From the UHGV virus genome UHGV-0076293: DNA of 64,000 bases; one strand, given 5' to 3'. This stretch comes from a virus. The position numbers were made by a program, and so were the translations under genes. The notes beneath the pieces were generated by a model. That model saw only the letters and a program-made list of their open reading frames with translations. It searched no databases and was not told the origin of the DNA. The first letter of the stretch is position 1. Every line of letters starts with the position of its first letter. This document shows, in pieces, positions 8,088-59,170 of the stretch.

Positions 8088-8231
8088 ATGATTTCTGTAA
8101 AACACAAAAAAGCTATCTTCGCTGTTGTTATCGCTGTTGTTCTGGGTTGCCTGTACCTGGATATCGATAAAGGCTACGACACTTGCATCGACAACGGTAA
8201 TTCCGTTGCGCAGTGCACTGGTCGTGGTTAA
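8088..8231 (+). CDS. small lipoprotein (47 aa)
   Basis: not in the ORF track; N-terminal K-rich plus hydrophobic signal ending in lipobox VLGC; AGGAG RBS; optimal codons; own promoter motif and terminator. Confidence 0.6.
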   Translation: MISVKHKKAIFAVVIAVVLGCLYLDIDKGYDTCIDNGNSVAQCTGRG

Positions 8232-8236
8232 TGTAT

Positions 8237-8268
8237 AAGGCACCTTCGGGTGCCCTTAATTTTTTTAT
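8237..8268 (+). terminator. intrinsic terminator
   Basis: AAGGCACC-TTCG-GGTGCCCTT hairpin followed by a T-run. Confidence 0.75.
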
Positions 8269-8285
8269 TAATTGGAGCATAAACG

Positions 8286-9101
8286 ATGATTACTATTAAA
8301 GATTATTTTCCGCGTGGGTTGAGCAATGAAAACTTCGTTCCAACTGAAGACATTGCCATCGTTGCAGAGTCCAGCGATAAGTCTTTTAAACTCTACTTGA
8401 GTACGGCAGCAGGAAAATCCACTCTTATCCTTCGTGAACCTGAAGTGATAAGCATCTGCTCGTTTGGGGGTGGTGTAGAAGGAACGATTAACTGGTTGAA
8501 ATCCAGAATGCATCGTTTGCTTATCGTGAATACCGATCCTGTGATTCGTTTACAGCAATTGAAATCGTTGAATGAAATTATCGTCGGATTATTGGAACAT
8601 GAAACGTTTGGTAATGCTGAGATTGCGGAAGCGATTAAATCTGTAGAACTAATCGAGTGGAGCGATATCGAATACGAACGTGCTGGGTTATTCGCAATGT
8701 ACGGTGATGATAATCCCGTTGCGTTTGCACAAACGTTGGATAATGTTACCGTAACAGCGCGCGTATTGTTTGGTTTACAACGTGTTGAGTTTGAACTGAA
8801 ACACGTCTACGTGAGCAATAAACCGGAGATGGTGGAGACATTGATTCGTGCTTTCGCATACCCGTTAGACGGTGAATGGGAACAGCAGATTAATGAAGCG
8901 TTAGAAGCCATGCATTTCCTGGCTGAAACGTTAAGGAAGGATGAGAAATTGAAAGGTCGTGTTTATCCAGAACACGATTTTGTTTGTGAAGAATGTGGAG
9001 CACAGTATCAAATCCGTGTTCCTTTAACCGGCCTAACATTCCCGCAAGCCAACGTGCAATGTAAGGAATGTGGTCATGTTCAATACGTAGCGATTAAATA
9101 A
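8286..9101 (+). CDS. hypothetical protein with C-terminal zinc ribbon
   Basis: 271 aa; C-terminal CEECG...CKECG (CxxC-x-CxxC) motif. Confidence 0.75.
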   Translation: MITIKDYFPRGLSNENFVPTEDIAIVAESSDKSFKLYLSTAAGKSTLILREPEVISICSFGGGVEGTINWLKSRMHRLLIVNTDPVIRLQQLKSLNEIIVGLLEHETFGNAEIAEAIKSVELIEWSDIEYERAGLFAMYGDDNPVAFAQTLDNVTVTARVLFGLQRVEFELKHVYVSNKPEMVETLIRAFAYPLDGEWEQQINEALEAMHFLAETLRKDEKLKGRVYPEHDFVCEECGAQYQIRVPLTGLTFPQANVQCKECGHVQYVAIK

Positions 9102-9107
9102 AAGCAA

Positions 9108-9150
9108 CCCCTAATCCCGAAAAGGATTAGGGGTACACTTTATTTATTTT
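9108..9150 (+). terminator. intrinsic terminator
   Basis: CCCCTAATCC-CGAAAA-GGATTAGGGG hairpin followed by a T-rich stretch. Confidence 0.7.
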
Positions 9151-9173
9151 CGCTCTTAAAAGGAAATTGTGTC

Positions 9174-9329
9174 ATGAGAAATGTTAATGCAATGCTTAAC
9201 CAGGCATTTGTTAACCAACAGCGTTTTCAGGAACGCTTAGCACAACTTAAAACACAACACAGACCACCACAACAAAGAGTGGTTAAGAGCAAGTTCGGCG
9301 AAATGGTTTTCGAAAGAAAATCTTTCTAA
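9174..9329 (+). CDS. small basic protein (51 aa), member a of a tandem trio
   Basis: not in the ORF track; AAGGA RBS; followed by a terminator hairpin; shares FxERL and FERKS-type motifs with the next two small ORFs. Confidence 0.45.
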   Translation: MRNVNAMLNQAFVNQQRFQERLAQLKTQHRPPQQRVVKSKFGEMVFERKSF

Positions 9330-9337
9330 TAACCGTT

Positions 9338-9361
9338 AGGGGTGTGACAGCACCCCTTTTT
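9338..9361 (+). terminator. intrinsic terminator
   Basis: AGGGGTG-TGACAG-CACCCCT hairpin followed by TTTT. Confidence 0.65.
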
Positions 9362-9479
9362 ACGCTTTAACTTTTCCAAAGAGAAGTTAAAGCAGTAAGG
9401 ACTGTTGGCGCAGTCCTTACTTGTCATCGCTATTACAGAAACGTGATAGCACAATTCTAATTTTTAGAGGCGATCAGAA

Positions 9480-9647
9480 ATGTTCGACAGTATTACACAA
9501 ATTTTTAACACTACCGTAAACAATCACGCTCAGCAAGCGAAGTTTAATGAACGATTAAGGGAAGTTCAACAATTAGGATTAAATAAAAGATTAAAATCTT
9601 CCAATAATCCTCGAGTACAGATCTTCACCGAAAGGAGAAGTAACTGA
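9480..9647 (+). CDS. small basic protein (55 aa), member b of a tandem trio
   Basis: not in the ORF track; AGAGG RBS; C-terminal QLGLNKRLKSSNN...QIFTERRS closely matches member c. Confidence 0.5.
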   Translation: MFDSITQIFNTTVNNHAQQAKFNERLREVQQLGLNKRLKSSNNPRVQIFTERRSN

Positions 9648-9656
9648 TAAAAACAA

Positions 9657-9684
9657 GGTGAGCTGTTGGAGCAGCTCACCTTTT
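9657..9684 (+). terminator. intrinsic terminator
   Basis: GGTGAGCTG-TTGGAG-CAGCTCACC hairpin followed by TTTT. Confidence 0.7.
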
Positions 9685-9743
9685 ACAACGCCATTACGTT
9701 TCCGTAATGGATTTCTTTAATCACCCTACAAAGAGGGCTTACC

Positions 9744-9917
9744 ATGAACAATGGTTACTACTTTACTGACAAAATGCTTGCAGAACAATATGCAGCAAAA
9801 ACCAATTTACAGCAACGTATCTACGAGTATAGTCAACTCGGTGCGAATAAACGATTAAAACCATCAACCAACCGTTTCACACAGATAATCACTGAAAAAA
9901 GGAGTGAACGCTACTAA
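9744..9917 (+). CDS. small basic protein (57 aa), member c of a tandem trio
   Basis: not in the ORF track; AGAGGG RBS; QLGANKRLKPSTN...QIITEKRS matches member b. Confidence 0.5.
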   Translation: MNNGYYFTDKMLAEQYAAKTNLQQRIYEYSQLGANKRLKPSTNRFTQIITEKRSERY

Positions 9918-10052
9918 CTAATAAAAGGGGGTGTGCTACCACCCCCTACTTAGTTCAGCAGTTGTCTTTCGTTCATAAATATTAGATGTCTTGTTTTTTT
10001 TTGCTTTTCGGGACGCATAAGGGGTCGTAGGGGGAGCCGAAGCTCCCCAGAC

Positions 10053-11615
10053 TCAAAAGAGTTCGTCACCCATACCGCCTGTAAAGACGTTAATCGACGA
10101 TGCAGTCACTGTTTCTTCTTTATCGCAATCCCAAGGCAGAATGCCAACTTCACGGAAAGGTATTACTGTATAATGGTAAGCTTCTTTAGTATCGATAATT
10201 GTACGGTGTTTACCACGTTGTACTTCTAAGTAACTATGCCCATTGACAACACGTTTGTTAAAATACATCTCACCGTCAGCTTCGTTATCCAAGCTGGAGC
10301 AGTTATCGTAAAGACCGCGACCTGGTAAGTTCTTACAGAAACTTGCTGGGTCTAACGCTTTTAATTTTTTGCCTTCCGGTGAGATTTGGTGTGGCGCTAA
10401 CAAGAAACCACGGTTACGTACTACCTGGATGTTTCGAGCGATACGATAAATTTCTTTAATGTCGCTACCGGCAATCCCGTTACCGTGACCTGCTTTACTG
10501 ATAGTCCCGAAATAGTCTCCGCGAATCCCAGCTACATGATAACCTCGACGCTTTAAGTCCAGTATTAAGTCGTTTAAGTAATGTATTTTAAAATCTGAGT
10601 TTGTGTGTTTCTGAAAGATGTACTCCCAACCGTTAGCCCGCATTTTACTACAGAGGTAGTCCGACATTTTTGTGTTGTGTAAAGCTTTCTCTTCGTCGGT
10701 AGCGTTTTCAGAAGCAACCATAACCGGTGCTTCACCTTCAAAATGACCGTAGAGCGCTTGGTACGCATACGCCAAGTTAACGTCCAGTTCGTTCTCTAAA
10801 CTTAAATCGAGAATAACCGGCTGCAAATCACCTTTAACGTTTTCCATTACTTTTTCAGGCGTATTGAATACCGGAATACTGATAGACAACAACAGACTAA
10901 AAAGCGATTTACAGTTAAAGGGCAATGCAGGCATTAGCCAAAGTTCTTCGGTAATCCCTTTGTTACAACCCAGCATCTGGTTAATGGCTTTCCATCCGGT
11001 ACGTAAACCATTACCCGCTGCTTTCTTACTGATTGAGTCGAACACATGTACGAACGGTGCACGGTTATCCGTAATAAGCTCACCAACTAGTGAGGGAATC
11101 TTATTATGAGAGCGTTCACTGAACGTAGAGAGACTATCTCTGAGGTCGTTGAGCGCCGTTTGTAAATCAACGCGCGTTTCGGTTCCGTTCAGTGCGCCTA
11201 ACGTACGACCTAATTTTTGTTTCAGTTGTACGCCTTGAATAGCTTGACGTAATTGGAAGTAGTATTGTGCTACTTGACGGTTAAGATGCTCGATGCGTGC
11301 TTCTGGTTCTTCTGGAATATCATCTTCCAGGAATTTGGTAATCGTATCGTATAGAGGACGTATTTGCGTAGTGGCCAGTTTCAAACGTTTCATGACGTTT
11401 GTGTGGTCGTAAGGCATACCGCCGTCTATGATGGATGTGATGATATCCTTGATTTCGACGAGGGCGGCACGTTCGTCACCTTCCTCTACGTAATCAGGAA
11501 GCTTAGCCTCTAACAGCACTTTTCTTATGACCTCGTGATCCTTCTCAGGGTCGGTCAGCAGACTTTCAGTGTATAGTGTGGCTAATGCGGTTATCAACAT
11601 CATTTTGTTATTCAT
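10053..11615 (-). CDS. hypothetical protein (520 aa)
   Basis: long minus-strand ORF; AAGGA RBS on the minus strand; start codon lies 13 nt from a divergent + strand gene. Confidence 0.75.
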   Translation of the reverse strand: MNNKMMLITALATLYTESLLTDPEKDHEVIRKVLLEAKLPDYVEEGDERAALVEIKDIITSIIDGGMPYDHTNVMKRLKLATTQIRPLYDTITKFLEDDIPEEPEARIEHLNRQVAQYYFQLRQAIQGVQLKQKLGRTLGALNGTETRVDLQTALNDLRDSLSTFSERSHNKIPSLVGELITDNRAPFVHVFDSISKKAAGNGLRTGWKAINQMLGCNKGITEELWLMPALPFNCKSLFSLLLSISIPVFNTPEKVMENVKGDLQPVILDLSLENELDVNLAYAYQALYGHFEGEAPVMVASENATDEEKALHNTKMSDYLCSKMRANGWEYIFQKHTNSDFKIHYLNDLILDLKRRGYHVAGIRGDYFGTISKAGHGNGIAGSDIKEIYRIARNIQVVRNRGFLLAPHQISPEGKKLKALDPASFCKNLPGRGLYDNCSSLDNEADGEMYFNKRVVNGHSYLEVQRGKHRTIIDTKEAYHYTVIPFREVGILPWDCDKEETVTASSINVFTGGMGDELF

Positions 11616-12165: not shown

Positions 12166-14451
12166 ATGAAAGATACCCGAATCTCTAATTTAGAGAAACT
12201 CGTAGAAGCCGGTACTAGTCTGGCCCAAAACGTCATCGGCAACAACACCGCCAGCGAAATGTGGAAGACGATTGTTGCAGGCGAGTCCGTACGTAGCAAC
12301 GCAAAAGTATTTGGCGCTCTGCGTGACGAAGCATCACAGCACTATGCCAACGCTTTTGGCGGCAAGAAAATGTCTCATGCTGCGACCGTCGCTTCCGCAA
12401 TGATTCTGGGCGTAGCTAACCACGGTAAAGACCTGCAAGAACGTGTTGCCCAGGAATACGCTAAGCCGGAATTCCACACCAAGTATAACCTGGATATTGG
12501 TATCCCTGGTGCGCAAGGTGGTGATTGGGGTCGTGAGCGTATGGTTGTTGCTCAGGAATACTACAGCAACAAAGACTACGACAAAAACCTGGGCCTGACC
12601 TGGACCCTGAACGTACGTGCTCTGGAAACTCAGTCCAAGTTTGCTGAAACACTGTTCCCGACCATTACCGTTGACACCAACGATGTTGGTATTACCGTAC
12701 GTACTAAAGTGACTACCGTTTCTCGCGGTATCATGAACGCGCTGCTGAGCAAAGACGTCGTTGAAGATCATCGTCGTCCGCTGCACAACGCTCTGACTGA
12801 CCACACCGTTCTCCAGGACGAAGCGATCAACATCGTTCCTTACGTAATGGAAACCGGTGAAAACCAGGAATACTTCGTAAGCGAAGATCTGGTTCCGAAC
12901 GAAACCGTTCGCCTGGGCCGTGTACCTCCGTATCCGACTAACTACCTGAGCTTTGCAAACGACACACTGAACCTGTTCCAGCTGTCTGCGCATCCGGGTA
13001 TTGTTCAGGAAGGTTACGATGAAACTGATGAAATCGCACCGGGTTGTGCTCTGGGCAGCCTGCTGATTTCTGTACGTAAACCGGCCGAAGAAGCGAAAGC
13101 GGGTAAATTCATCAAACTGCACGTTCGTGACATGCAGTTCGCAACCTTCCAGCGTCCTGCTGAAGGTGACGGCCGTGAACTGGTTCTGCAATTCCGTCGT
13201 ACCGCGTTCTCTCTGAATGCGAAAACCACTGACTGGAAAGGCGACGCTATTCCGGCACTGCAAGCACTGGGCCAGAACTCCTACACCCTGCGCTACGTTA
13301 TCACCATCACCATGTCCCTGTTCACCAGCGGCCAGTTCGGTGGTAAAGTAGACATTTCCGGCCACAAACTGGAAATCGAAGGTCTGTACGATGCAACTGG
13401 TAACAAAGTTGATACCAAGTCTGGTACCGGTAAAGTTATCCTGGACGGCCTGAAACTCGAGCTGATGGGCTGGCGCTTCGATGGTACTCGTACCAACGAA
13501 AACCGTCGTACCCAGGGTCTGCTGCTTGACCCAATTTGGGAACAGGAAAACTACAAACTGCAATACGGTTCTCCGATTCTGACCAAGTCTCCGGTTGGTG
13601 TTGAATACGACGACACTGAACGTCTGGATGACCTGATCTCTGCGGTGAACATCCGTAACGAACAGCTGGCTATTACTCAGACGCTGTCTTACACTGAAGC
13701 AGTACGTAACGCAGCCGCTGCGATGATCACTCCGTGGGACAAACCGGCTATCCGTGGTCTGGGCCGTCACTGGGTTGCTCCGTGGTTCAAAGAGTCTGAC
13801 TACAAAGTCGATGAAGTTGTTCAGTCTCTGGATACCAAAGAAGCGCTGATCAACGCTCGTCAGGGTCTGTTGCAGCGTATCGGTAGCCAGGTAACTCAGG
13901 CTATCCAGGATTCTCGTTTCATTCCTGCACTGCGCCTGCTGACTGCTGATCCGGACATTCTGCCGAAAGTTATCATCGCAACTGACGAACCGACTGCATC
14001 CATGCTGCTGCTGGTTCAGGGCGACCAACGTCTGCTGGGCGACCGTTATGAATACGAAGTCGTTACCACCAACGATGACCGCTGGCGTATCTACAACGCA
14101 GCTGACGATTCCTGGACTCGTCGTCTGCAATGGTTCCTGAAAGTTCCGACTGCGGACGATGGTTCCTACTGCGTACTGAACTGGGGTAACCACTTCTGGT
14201 CTCCGATCATGGTTACCAACATCAACATCCAGCGTAACGGTTCTACTTCTAAAGAACTGGCTGTACAGCCGCGTAACGCGCATATCTGCCACTGCCCGAT
14301 CACTGGTCTGATTTGGGTTAAAGGCATCACCAAACTGGTTGAAGAAAAACTGGCTTACAACGTTTCTGTAGAACAGAACGGCCAGAAACAAACCGAAGGT
14401 GGTGTAGCAGGTAATGTTGCTGGCGACGGTAAAGACAAAGCTGGTAAATAA
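12166..14451 (+). CDS. abundant virion protein, probable major capsid protein (761 aa)
   Basis: extreme bias to enterobacterial optimal codons (CTG, CGT, GGT, ACC, AAA, GAA); the bias leaves a 685-aa stop-free antisense frame; size fits the ~750-aa major capsid proteins of phiKZ-like phages; no motif-level confirmation possible here. Confidence 0.5.
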   Translation: MKDTRISNLEKLVEAGTSLAQNVIGNNTASEMWKTIVAGESVRSNAKVFGALRDEASQHYANAFGGKKMSHAATVASAMILGVANHGKDLQERVAQEYAKPEFHTKYNLDIGIPGAQGGDWGRERMVVAQEYYSNKDYDKNLGLTWTLNVRALETQSKFAETLFPTITVDTNDVGITVRTKVTTVSRGIMNALLSKDVVEDHRRPLHNALTDHTVLQDEAINIVPYVMETGENQEYFVSEDLVPNETVRLGRVPPYPTNYLSFANDTLNLFQLSAHPGIVQEGYDETDEIAPGCALGSLLISVRKPAEEAKAGKFIKLHVRDMQFATFQRPAEGDGRELVLQFRRTAFSLNAKTTDWKGDAIPALQALGQNSYTLRYVITITMSLFTSGQFGGKVDISGHKLEIEGLYDATGNKVDTKSGTGKVILDGLKLELMGWRFDGTRTNENRRTQGLLLDPIWEQENYKLQYGSPILTKSPVGVEYDDTERLDDLISAVNIRNEQLAITQTLSYTEAVRNAAAAMITPWDKPAIRGLGRHWVAPWFKESDYKVDEVVQSLDTKEALINARQGLLQRIGSQVTQAIQDSRFIPALRLLTADPDILPKVIIATDEPTASMLLLVQGDQRLLGDRYEYEVVTTNDDRWRIYNAADDSWTRRLQWFLKVPTADDGSYCVLNWGNHFWSPIMVTNINIQRNGSTSKELAVQPRNAHICHCPITGLIWVKGITKLVEEKLAYNVSVEQNGQKQTEGGVAGNVAGDGKDKAGK

Positions 14452-14466
14452 TAACGAATAAAAAGT

Positions 14467-14504
14467 GTCTAAGCCCTTCGGGGCTTAGACCTTTTATTTT
14501 TTTC
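14467..14504 (+). terminator. intrinsic terminator
   Basis: GTCTAAGCCC-TTCG-GGGCTTAGAC followed by a T-run. Confidence 0.8.
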
Positions 14505-14568
14505 TTTCTATTATTTTTTGGATAGATATTATCAAAGGGAGACTGTCAGTTGGTTTAAAGGAGACTTT

Positions 14569-27383: not shown

Positions 27384-27420
27384 AACCTCTACCTTCGGGT
27401 AGAGGTTTTCTTCTTTTTAT
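27384..27420 (+). terminator. intrinsic terminator
   Basis: ACCTCTACC-TTCG-GGTAGAGGT followed by a T-rich stretch. Confidence 0.75.
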
Positions 27421-27467
27421 TTTACAATTTTTGATCATACTGTGAGACTTCTAGCGAGGAGATTTAG

Positions 27468-30161: not shown

Positions 30162-30205
30162 GTAGAGAGAGCTTTCGGGCTCTCTCTACTTTTCTTTTTT
30201 TTTTC
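30162..30205 (+). terminator. intrinsic terminator
   Basis: GTAGAGAGAGC-TTTCG-GGCTCTCTCTAC followed by T10. Confidence 0.85.
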
Positions 30206-30233
30206 ATTATCGACGGTCTTTATGGAGGTGACT

Positions 30234-34812: not shown

Positions 34813-34848
34813 CCCCCTACCTTCGGGTAGGGGTTATTTAATTTTTTC
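34813..34848 (+). terminator. intrinsic terminator (repeat-family hairpin)
   Basis: CCCTTACCCCCTACC-TTCG-GGTAGGGG followed by a T-rich stretch. Confidence 0.75.
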
Positions 34849-34890
34849 TCAGATATATATTACCTTAGTGAGATTACACAGTAATCACTT
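34843..34890 (+). promoter_or_regulatory. phage promoter-like element with downstream 5'-UTR hairpin (copy 2)
   Basis: TTTTTTCTCAGATATATATTACCTTAGTGAGA followed by an inverted repeat (TTAC...GTAATCAC). Confidence 0.6.
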
Positions 34891-50803: not shown

Positions 50804-50815
50804 AAGAGTAGCGTA

Positions 50816-50825
50816 GGGGGGGGGG
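50816..50825. repeat. poly-G tract (G10) inside a GC hairpin
   Basis: homopolymer GGGGGGGGGG pairing with a downstream C6 run. Confidence 0.9.
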
Positions 50826-50853
50826 AGGTCACCCCCCTACGCGAATCTTAACA

Positions 50854-50862
50854 GGGGGGGGG
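50854..50862. repeat. poly-G tract (G9) forming the ribosome-binding region of the gene at 50865
   Basis: GGGGGGGGG ends 2 nt before the ATG. Confidence 0.9.
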
Positions 50863-50864
50863 TA

Positions 50865-51405: not shown

Positions 51406-51415
51406 GGGGGGGGGG
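51406..51415. repeat. poly-G tract (G10)
   Basis: homopolymer about 55 nt upstream of the gene at 51471. Confidence 0.9.
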
Positions 51416-51470
51416 TGAAGTGTTTTTAGCCAACATTTTATGTCTCCCCAACCGTAGGAGGTAAATATAC

Positions 51471-54736: not shown

Positions 54737-54782
54737 TCAGATATATATTACCTAGAGGAGAGTGAAATTTACATTCACTCCA
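54731..54782 (+). promoter_or_regulatory. phage promoter-like element with downstream 5'-UTR hairpin (copy 4)
   Basis: TTTTTTCTCAGATATATATTACCTAGAGGAGAGTGAA followed by an inverted repeat ending TTCACTCC. Confidence 0.6.
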
Positions 54783-59118: not shown

Positions 59119-59170
59119 TAATTTCAGATATATATTACCTAGGTGAGAGTTCAGTTACTCTCACTTAACC
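59119..59170 (+). promoter_or_regulatory. phage promoter-like element with downstream 5'-UTR hairpin (copy 5)
   Basis: ATTTCAGATATATATTACCTAGGTGAGAGT-TCAGT-TACTCTCAC; clean 8-bp stem. Confidence 0.65.

Follow-up and report, generated by a model that had tools for sequence, protein, structure and literature searches.

A probable tandem array of small gp71/gp72-family genes with hairpin spacers in an SPN3US-like jumbo phage

Three small open reading frames (ORFs a, b and c) lie in tandem on the plus strand of the virus genome UHGV-0076293, of which a 64,000-nt stretch (the window) serves as the reference; all positions are counted from its first letter. ORF a (9174-9329) encodes 51 amino acids (aa), ORF b (9480-9647) encodes 55 and ORF c (9744-9917) encodes 57. 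A Shine-Dalgarno (SD)-like motif is found 9-14 nt 5' of each ATG: AAGGA at 9160-9164, GAGG at 9467-9470 and GAGGG at 9733-9737. With these motifs included, cassette a spans 9160-9329, cassette b 9467-9647 and cassette c 9733-9917. The positions and strand of the ORFs agree exactly with an initial annotation made from the sequence alone, and the ribosome-binding sites that it proposed could all be located. The likeness between b and c that it described (QLG[LA]NKRLK.S.N...QI[FI]TE[RK]RS) is real, as is the greater divergence of a. The predicted proteins end in KFGEMVFERKSF (a), RVQIFTERRSN (b) and FTQIITEKRSERY (c), and the C-terminus of a (KFGEMVFERK) is, among the three, nearest to the ancestral KGLGGEIIFNKK type. 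The trio sits at a convergent junction, with a gp70-like gene upstream and a helicase gene on the opposite strand downstream.

The ORFs are separated and bordered by hairpins. At the 5' border of the array lies H0 (9107-9134; ACCCCTAATCC-CGAAAA-GGATTAGGGGT with a TTTATTTATTTT tail), the terminator of the gp70-like gene. Between a and b there are four hairpins on the plus strand, all within the interval (9335-9450) in which the initial annotation had placed four. The first of these, T1 (9338-9361, with the hairpin itself at 9338-9357), reads AGGGGTG-TGACAG-CACCCCT and is a GC-rich terminator followed by a T5 run. H2 (9364-9393; GCTTTAACTT-TTCCAAAGAG-AAGTTAAAGC) folds, as plus-strand RNA, into a 13-bp stem in which a U.G wobble is conserved, capped by a tetraloop. 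H3 (9394-9421; AGTAAGGACTG-TTGGCG-CAGTCCTTACT) has an 11-bp stem and abuts H2 with no linker, and the two stack into a helix of ~24 bp. H4 (9429-9450; GCTATTAC-AGAAAC-GTGATAGC), with one U.G wobble on the plus strand, lies in the 5' leader of b. Between b and c are H5 (9655-9682; AAGGTGAGCTG-TTGGAG-CAGCTCACCTT), which belongs to the H3' class and is a paralog of the H3-type hairpin, and the plus-strand H6 (9691-9710; CCATTACG-TTTC-CGTAATGG) in the 5' leader of c. T1 and H2, which precede H5 elsewhere, are deleted in the window, so that the H3-class hairpin at 9655 directly follows the stop codon of b. The 3' border is formed by H7 (9926-9947; AGGGGGTG-TGCTAC-CACCCCCT), which, because its T-rich tail is on the minus strand, is more suggestive of a back-stop terminator for transcription on the helicase strand. 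Of the window's 39 perfect hairpins (stem of at least 8 bp), six fall within 840 nt at the array, and a terminator scan recovered 11 terminator-like sites in 3 kb where 2.9 were expected. Against dinucleotide shuffles, the two spacers have fold z-scores of -8.15 and -6.23, compared with -2.4 for ORF a, in keeping with the unusually structured spacers already noted in the initial annotation.

Thirty distinct natural versions of the locus were gathered from the window's clade. Counted by first, second and third codon position, the variable sites number 7, 6 and 22 in b, 9, 5 and 20 in c, 0, 0 and 3 in a, and 5, 6 and 14 in x, a cassette type carried by other arrays of the clade. The pooled ratio of nonsynonymous to synonymous variation (pN/pS) of the cassette types is 0.15-0.30 (b 0.17, c 0.15). 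Of the two flanking genes, the gp70-like one has a ratio of 0.14 and the helicase one of 0.02, at equal synonymous divergence (pS 0.28-0.32), and the cassettes are not unusually divergent relative to these flanks. Although the leaders differ, each of the six cassette types retains an SD motif at -11 to -14. Third-position variation, low pN/pS and conserved SD motifs together indicate, on comparative grounds, that the ORFs are protein-coding genes under purifying selection. Within each type pN/pS is well below 1, and thus nothing points to ongoing positive selection. The initial annotation had offered either an amplified small-gene cassette or a structured RNA array, to be told apart by conservation in related phages. 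Low pN/pS and third-position variation decide for protein, and the first description fits well, since the genes are paralogs under purifying selection in an array of variable copy number. An RNA array in place of proteins finds no support, as most copies are intact with third-position variation, though some are truncated. Homologous ORFs are annotated as genes in public assemblies and in Salmonella phage SPN3US.

The cassettes have counterparts in databases, as SPN3US gp71 and gp72 and many 'hypothetical proteins' belong to the same family. SPN3US_0071 and SPN3US_0072 (YP_009153365 and YP_009153366) are 48-aa 'hypothetical' genes in the same slot as the trio, and in alignments their products match a, b and c at an F-[NQ]-[QE]-R-[LVIM]-x-[EQ] motif and at the hydrophobic-basic C-terminus. 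A family hidden Markov model (HMM) matches a, b and c of the window with E = 5e-25 to 4e-29 and gp71/gp72 with ~1e-21, these five having built the model; copies outside the model, from the relatives L012, L014 and L011, score 4e-9 to 4e-7. A profile search returns the gp71/gp72 clusters at E ~1e-13 to 1e-14. Searched in this way, 5.8 billion clusters yielded 69 family members, all of them unnamed proteins and none with a Pfam domain, located on phage contigs of ~220-250 kb wherever the record includes a long contig. Scanning 1.84 billion representatives exhaustively with HMMER added nothing outside this clade. No relative of any family member was found in Pfam, PHROGs, NCBIfam, PADLOC or the Protein Data Bank (PDB), tblastn with ORF c gave chance matches only, and a family search of the 64-kb window found no further copies there. 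In the SPN3US literature that was searched, gp71 and gp72 go unmentioned.

Three apparent relationships were rejected. A 287-aa secreted repeat protein (P0070) from the exhaustive scan is a spurious match, consisting of five weak helical stretches with generic Pfam matches. The 'E[VY]xxLGL' segment loosely resembles SHOCT, but Pfam gives no support for this and SPN3US-type members lack the segment. Ribosomal protein bL34 gave an end-to-end PDB profile match of only E = 0.54, and was ruled out by an hhalign probability of 0.3% over 6 aligned columns and by the failure of all members examined (0/30) to match Pfam Ribosomal_L34.

In related phages the family genes are flanked by the gp70 homolog and the DnaB-like helicase and lie on the other strand from the helicase, and the same is true of the trio in the window. 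Homologs of 47-49 aa occur in Erwinia phages Machina, Parshik, pEa_SNUABM_6 and pEa_SNUABM_11 and in Salmonella phage pSal-SNUABM-04. Copy number is zero in Erskinevirus (phiEaH2 and Asesino, with a gap of ~115 nt), one in L011, L012 and L014, two in Seoulvirus and up to four in the window's clade. Both gp71 and gp72 are intact in all Seoulvirus loci (15/15). A KGLGG[DE]I[ILV]F[NT]K[KR] end is strongly conserved in the single-copy genera and in gp71/gp72 and is found in none of the window's a, b and c; by these diverged C-termini the window copies form a divergent subfamily. In more distant relatives, unrelated ORFs of 130 and 154 aa, none matching Pfam, occupy the helicase-proximal slot (L011 5960-6352 and L012 4027-4419, both on the minus strand, and L015 5627-6091). 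The junction is thus a general insertion hot spot.

Members of the family are 47-61 aa long, have an isoelectric point of 9.8-11.7 and a net charge of +4 to +7, are rich in glutamine and asparagine, and contain no cysteine. The nearly invariant residues are the start methionine and the arginine of the F-x-x-R motif only. With the family alignment, AlphaFold2 (AF2) predicts one helix over residues 2-34 (predicted local distance difference test, pLDDT, ~80-89), followed by a low-confidence tail. The charge, the near-invariant arginine and the position beside replication genes suggest, tentatively, that the proteins may interact, through the helix and the C-terminal motif, with nucleic acid or with a partner protein in infected cells.

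The 30 arrays share the fixed order a/a2-b-x-c-c2 and carry one to four intact genes in addition to remnants and chimeric forms. The forms observed are a-b-x-c (L045), a-b-c (the window), a2-b-c2 (L005), a2-x-c, a2-c, b-x-c, x-c, x-c2 and x alone. L005, whose helicase is 100% identical to that of the window, has the other first-slot allele and c2, not c, as its last gene. Its flanks and b cassette are near-identical to those of the window, and the interior is mosaic. The module between cassettes consists of T1, H2, H3, a leader hairpin, the SD motif and the ORF, in that order. T1 has the consensus (A)nGGGGTG-N6-CACCCC(T)n, and H2 the consensus GCTTTA[AT]CTT-TTC[CG]AAAGAG-AAG[AT]TAAAGC. H3 reads AGTAGGGACTG-N6-CAGTCCCTACT or AAGGTACGCTG-N6-CAGCGTACCTT, and the leader hairpin begins GGCTAAC..., GCTATTAC... 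or CCATTACG... T1, H2 and H3 recur between cassettes across the 30 arrays, and the T1 stem GGGGTG/CACCCC is common to all cassettes and to SPN3US. When the window is aligned with three relatives (L005-L007), homology resumes at T1, H2, H6 and H7. A chimeric H2, with arms from different variants and an A/A mismatch, was seen 12 times.

The stems of these hairpins are well conserved as pairs. Over 21 distinct H2-H3 modules 98.6% of cells are paired. H3 shows double-sided changes at 7 of its 11 pairs, and sliding the partners by 1-3 columns abolishes this signal. One-sided transitions in the module produce a plus-strand G.U six times and an A.C once. Covariation of the hairpins, raised as a check in the initial annotation, is thus confirmed for the stems, which covary and stay paired, whereas the loops are unconstrained. 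Among H3-class hairpins the loop reads TTGGCG, CGCCAA, TATAGG, CCTATA, CGGTAA, TTACCG, TTGGTG, CACCAA, TTGTAG, CTACAA, GTGCTA, TAGCAC, TTGGAG or AAGCCG, and only the closing CTG/CAG is constant. Loop pairs are often exact reverse complements in an identical stem, a pattern seen in five hairpin classes of the clade: CGAAAA 10 and TTTTCG 13 times in H0, CTGTCA 8 and TGACAG 5 times in T1, GAAA 8 and TTTC 6 times in H6, and three such pairs in each of two H3 classes. In Seoulvirus, loops are inverted at three hairpins of the same locus. Control hairpins never flip; the loop of the hairpin at 8239 is TTCG in 22 of 22 cases and that of the helicase terminator is CGAA in 30 of 30. The initial annotation had emphasized a loop core, CTGTTGGNGCAG, shared by the hairpins at 9394-9421 and 9655-9682. 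The sequence likeness stands, as both have 11-bp stems, CTG/CAG closing and a TTGG[C/A]G loop. However, loops that vary this much, and are often inverted across strains, make the likeness a matter of paralogy within one hairpin class and not of a functional loop.

Template switching during replication is known to invert hairpin loops and to make compensatory changes in one step (PMC8794818). Judging from the alignments, loop flipping at the array most likely occurs through replication template switching. As this process can yield compensatory change, the perfect stems seen here are weaker evidence for selection at the RNA level. Searches with Rfam covariance models gave chance-level matches only (E >=0.16, far below gathering), none of them on the spacer hairpins.

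H2 behaves differently from the flipping hairpins. Cassettes whose proteins are only 13-40% identical have H2 sequences that agree at 90% or more of their positions, and the H2 apex was never inverted (0/43 copies). The tetraloop is GAAA in 22 of the 43 copies and CAAA in the window, and the U.G wobble is invariant. H2 occurs once in the window, and in IMG/VR it occurs at this locus only and in this clade only. It is absent from SPN3US and from other Seoulvirus loci that keep the proteins. Its near-invariance may reflect either homogenization of H2 by recombination or a sequence-specific role of the plus-strand RNA as a processing or binding site.

Taken together, these observations make it very probable that the locus is a tandem array of paralogous protein-coding mini-genes of the gp71/gp72 family, with the hairpins as terminator-type spacers and the shared loop owed to descent. 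Each gene would then be a self-contained cassette of one or more leader hairpins, an SD motif, the ORF and a GC-rich terminator hairpin. Strains would come to differ by cassette loss, truncation and allele replacement, with the repeated hairpins possibly serving as recombination anchors in the manner of the promoter-early stem-loop (PeSL) elements of T4-like phages. Stems would be kept paired while loops drift and flip by template switching. On the plus-strand messenger RNA (mRNA) the hairpins may act as terminators or stabilizers, and the proteins would be individually dispensable accessory factors.

Several points weigh against this arrangement of genes and spacers. Transcription and translation of the cassettes are deduced by comparing sequences. 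A promoter scan recognized no promoter in the spacers, the sole plus-strand match being inside ORF c, and the TATATTAC-type early-promoter-like motif that is seen elsewhere in the window is absent from the array. Erskinevirus phages do without any copy of the family. Truncated and chimeric copies (a 40-aa a2 in L025-L030, 20-aa c2 remnants, P0005, P0055 and P0067) imply that individual genes are dispensable, and no array of the window's clade is without an intact gene. The near-invariance of H2 is not accounted for by a role as plain terminator or spacer, and template switching could itself make perfect stems and 'compensatory' changes with no selection on RNA structure. Confidence in the AF2 model is modest (pLDDT 72), and it is composition and context that suggest a function for the proteins.

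As to that function, the main alternative is that the proteins are anti-defence or host-takeover effectors directed at host proteins of Escherichia coli or Salmonella and diversified in an arms race. Copy-number variation, divergent paralogs, allele replacement and hot-spot location are typical of phage counter-defence genes. The family matches this description in being accessory and variable in copy number, in having paralogs only 13-40% identical, in the replacement of alleles (a/a2 and c/c2) and in its hot-spot location. However, pN/pS is well below 1 for each type, divergence is that of the genome background, synteny holds across several genera and there is no match to known families. Such a role is conceivable, but the balance of these points leaves it doubtful.

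A regulatory role centered on H2 would fit beside the mini-gene array. H2 stacked on H3 could be a plus-strand RNA processing site, or a site bound by a phage or host factor (perhaps the basic peptides) that controls expression of the small effectors, although we consider this unlikely. If true, H2 and the peptides would be a new module of cis-regulatory RNA and small protein for phages with their own RNA polymerases, and the element would govern a variable arsenal of small effectors in a nucleus-forming jumbo phage.

It is a good deal less likely again that the locus is a structured non-coding RNA array, of small RNAs or processed RNA, in which the ORFs are incidental. The spacers are exceptionally stable and H3 covaries. 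H2, far more conserved than the ORFs, has its plus-strand U.G wobble and is never inverted, and one-sided transitions yield G.U on the plus strand more often than A.C (6 vs 1). None of this accounts for the clear coding constraint on the ORFs or their conserved SD motifs, and the protein family persists in genera whose spacers lack H2. Furthermore, nothing is found in Rfam, the loops are unconstrained, and the hairpins lie between ORFs as they do in mRNA leaders and terminators.

Equally improbable is a specific form of the H2 idea, in which the basic peptides are RNA-binding regulators of H2 acting through antitermination like that of lambda N and boxB, or through translational autoregulation, with the phage's own RNA polymerase. 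The peptides are indeed basic and helical with a near-invariant arginine, and H2, orientation-constrained and situated among terminators, ends in a tetraloop of the GNRA type (GAAA) in 22 of its 43 copies. However, SPN3US and the single-copy genera have the proteins and no H2, the H2 loop of the window itself (CAAA) is not a GNRA loop, and the N-terminal helix carries no arginine-rich cluster.

Integron attC sites have the core sequences RYYYAAC/GTTRRRY and extrahelical bases within a site of 57-141 nt. An integron-like cassette system with hairpins as attC-type sites would suit small, apparently promoter-less ORFs parted by imperfect-palindrome elements, and the H2 arms (CTTTAAC/GTTAAAG) loosely resemble attC cores, but it can practically be dismissed, given that the arms miss the R and Y positions, the hairpin is 30 nt long with no bulges or extrahelical bases, the cassette order is fixed and not shuffled, the element occurs at this locus only, and neither a recombinase nor an integrase was noticed among the neighbouring ORFs, to which the scan was confined.

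The reading as an array of mini-genes places the locus within a known kind. Its genes belong with the annotated but uncharacterized gp71/gp72 genes, and it behaves like phage hyperplastic regions. New here are the definition of the family, the ordered presence/absence array, the widespread loop-inversion polymorphism and the puzzling H2. A small-protein family restricted to SPN3US-like jumbo phages is now defined, and because its genes are coding, annotation pipelines that skip ORFs of <60 codons will miss it. The family marks a plastic locus beside core replication genes in phages that are studied for nucleus formation and therapy. A practical lesson is that hairpin loops shared by tandem units can be plain paralogy.

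The wider setting of the locus is that of an uncultured, PhiKZ-type jumbo phage like SPN3US and phiEaH2, as identified by PhiKZ_MCP and divDnaB matches. The divergent DnaB-like helicase (10053-11615, minus strand) is 84% identical to its counterparts in SPN3US and Erwinia phage phiEaH2, with no closer phage in GenBank; when the DNA of the region was compared with GenBank phages for near-identical sequence, no match at >=85% identity appeared. The same or near-identical phages are present in IMG/VR, as well as on 222-226 kb contigs from metagenomes and E. coli assemblies. Clade phages appear as single contigs of 222-226 kb in many E. coli isolate assemblies at NCBI (source records of L025-L050). 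This recurrence of single contigs suggests that an uncultured SPN3US-like jumbo phage infects E. coli persistently or is kept there in a carrier state. The gene upstream of the array (8286-9101) encodes 271 aa with a C-terminal zinc ribbon and is a homolog of SPN3US gp70, an essential, non-virion protein (PMC5105663). Just 5' of it lies a 47-aa ORF (8088-8231, plus strand) with a hydrophobic N-terminal segment and four cysteines; it is annotated as a gene in all related contigs and has no Pfam match. The PhiKZ_MCP major capsid gene is at 12166-14451, and a 685-aa ORF antisense to it (12334-14391, minus strand) is almost certainly a spurious shadow ORF. No transfer RNAs were found in the window. 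Poly-G tracts of G10-G11 occur in two consecutive intergenic regions (50811-50864 and ~51415-51425), one of them within a hairpin with an 11-bp stem, and could be slippage-prone or G-quadruplex-forming sites.

Beyond H7, a conserved block on the minus strand (9990-10050), 3' of the helicase stop, consists of a T9 run, GGACGCATAA and the hairpin GGGGAGC-CGAA-GCTCCCC at 10031-10048. On the helicase strand the loop of this hairpin is UUCG, in a single orientation throughout (30/30), and the block is the outer anchor of the locus. The block (T9, GGACGCATAA and GGGGAGCC[GT]AAGCTCCCC), at ~5590-5650 in L001 and ~5570-5640 in L002, is conserved in the window, SPN3US and phiEaH2, whereas the adjacent intergenic DNA is not. 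Its hairpin has no T tail on the strand of the helicase. A TTTTATTTTTT(C) tail after a GC-rich hairpin, often with a TTCG loop, is common to the terminators of this genome (for example at 14467-14510, 27384-27430 and 30162-30210). Two further motifs recur in the window. GTGAG[AG] is found 20-40 nt 5' of many start codons and may be part of a middle/late promoter or transcription start region. The intergenic motif [CT]TCAGATATATATTACCT[AT]G.GAGA is found 3' of terminator hairpins at ~34848-34875, ~54738-54765 and ~59122-59150, and in weaker form at ~39885; it resembles TATATTAC, the consensus of the phiKZ early (virion RNA polymerase) promoter.

The closest known counterpart of the array is the gp71/gp72 locus. 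The two agree in slot, gene size, charge, the F-[NQ]-Q-R-[LV]-x-[EQ] helix motif, the hydrophobic-basic C-terminus and a GGGGTG...CACCCC terminator 3' of the gene. Phages of the gp71/gp72 type, however, have one or two stable copies, whereas in the window's clade as many as four intact copies are drawn from five slots. The clade further differs in its diverged C-termini (QI[FI]TE[RK]RS and others), its extra hairpins H2 and H3, and its frequent loss and truncation of genes. Among hairpins, those of phage T7, which are processed by RNase III and lie between early genes, offer an analogy only. They too are stable intergenic hairpins between small genes, but the characteristic internal loops of the T7 sites are absent from the array hairpins. 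Ribosomal RNA hairpins altered by template switching (PMC8794818) share with the array the reverse-complement loops in unchanged, perfectly complementary stems. In ribosomal RNA these changes are seen over deep phylogenies, whereas in the array they form a common polymorphism among close phage genomes, with template switching as the presumed mechanism.

In organization, the array most resembles the PeSL motifs in the hyperplastic regions of T4-like phages, which mediate indels and swaps of small ORFs (PMC2839356, PMC4122927). In both, short stem-loop modules recur between small variable ORFs. Among close relatives of the T4-like group, indels or replacements start and stop at the modules, and in the array they may do likewise. 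A PeSL combines a terminator with a sigma-70 early promoter, whereas no promoter is recognized in the array module, and PhiKZ-type phages use their own RNA polymerases for transcription. The array module also differs in having three or four hairpins, in being confined to a single locus and in separating ORFs that are paralogs in a fixed order. The locus offers a clean natural example, outside the T4-like phages, of hairpin-loop inversion polymorphism and, probably, of cassette loss and replacement at repeated stem-loops.

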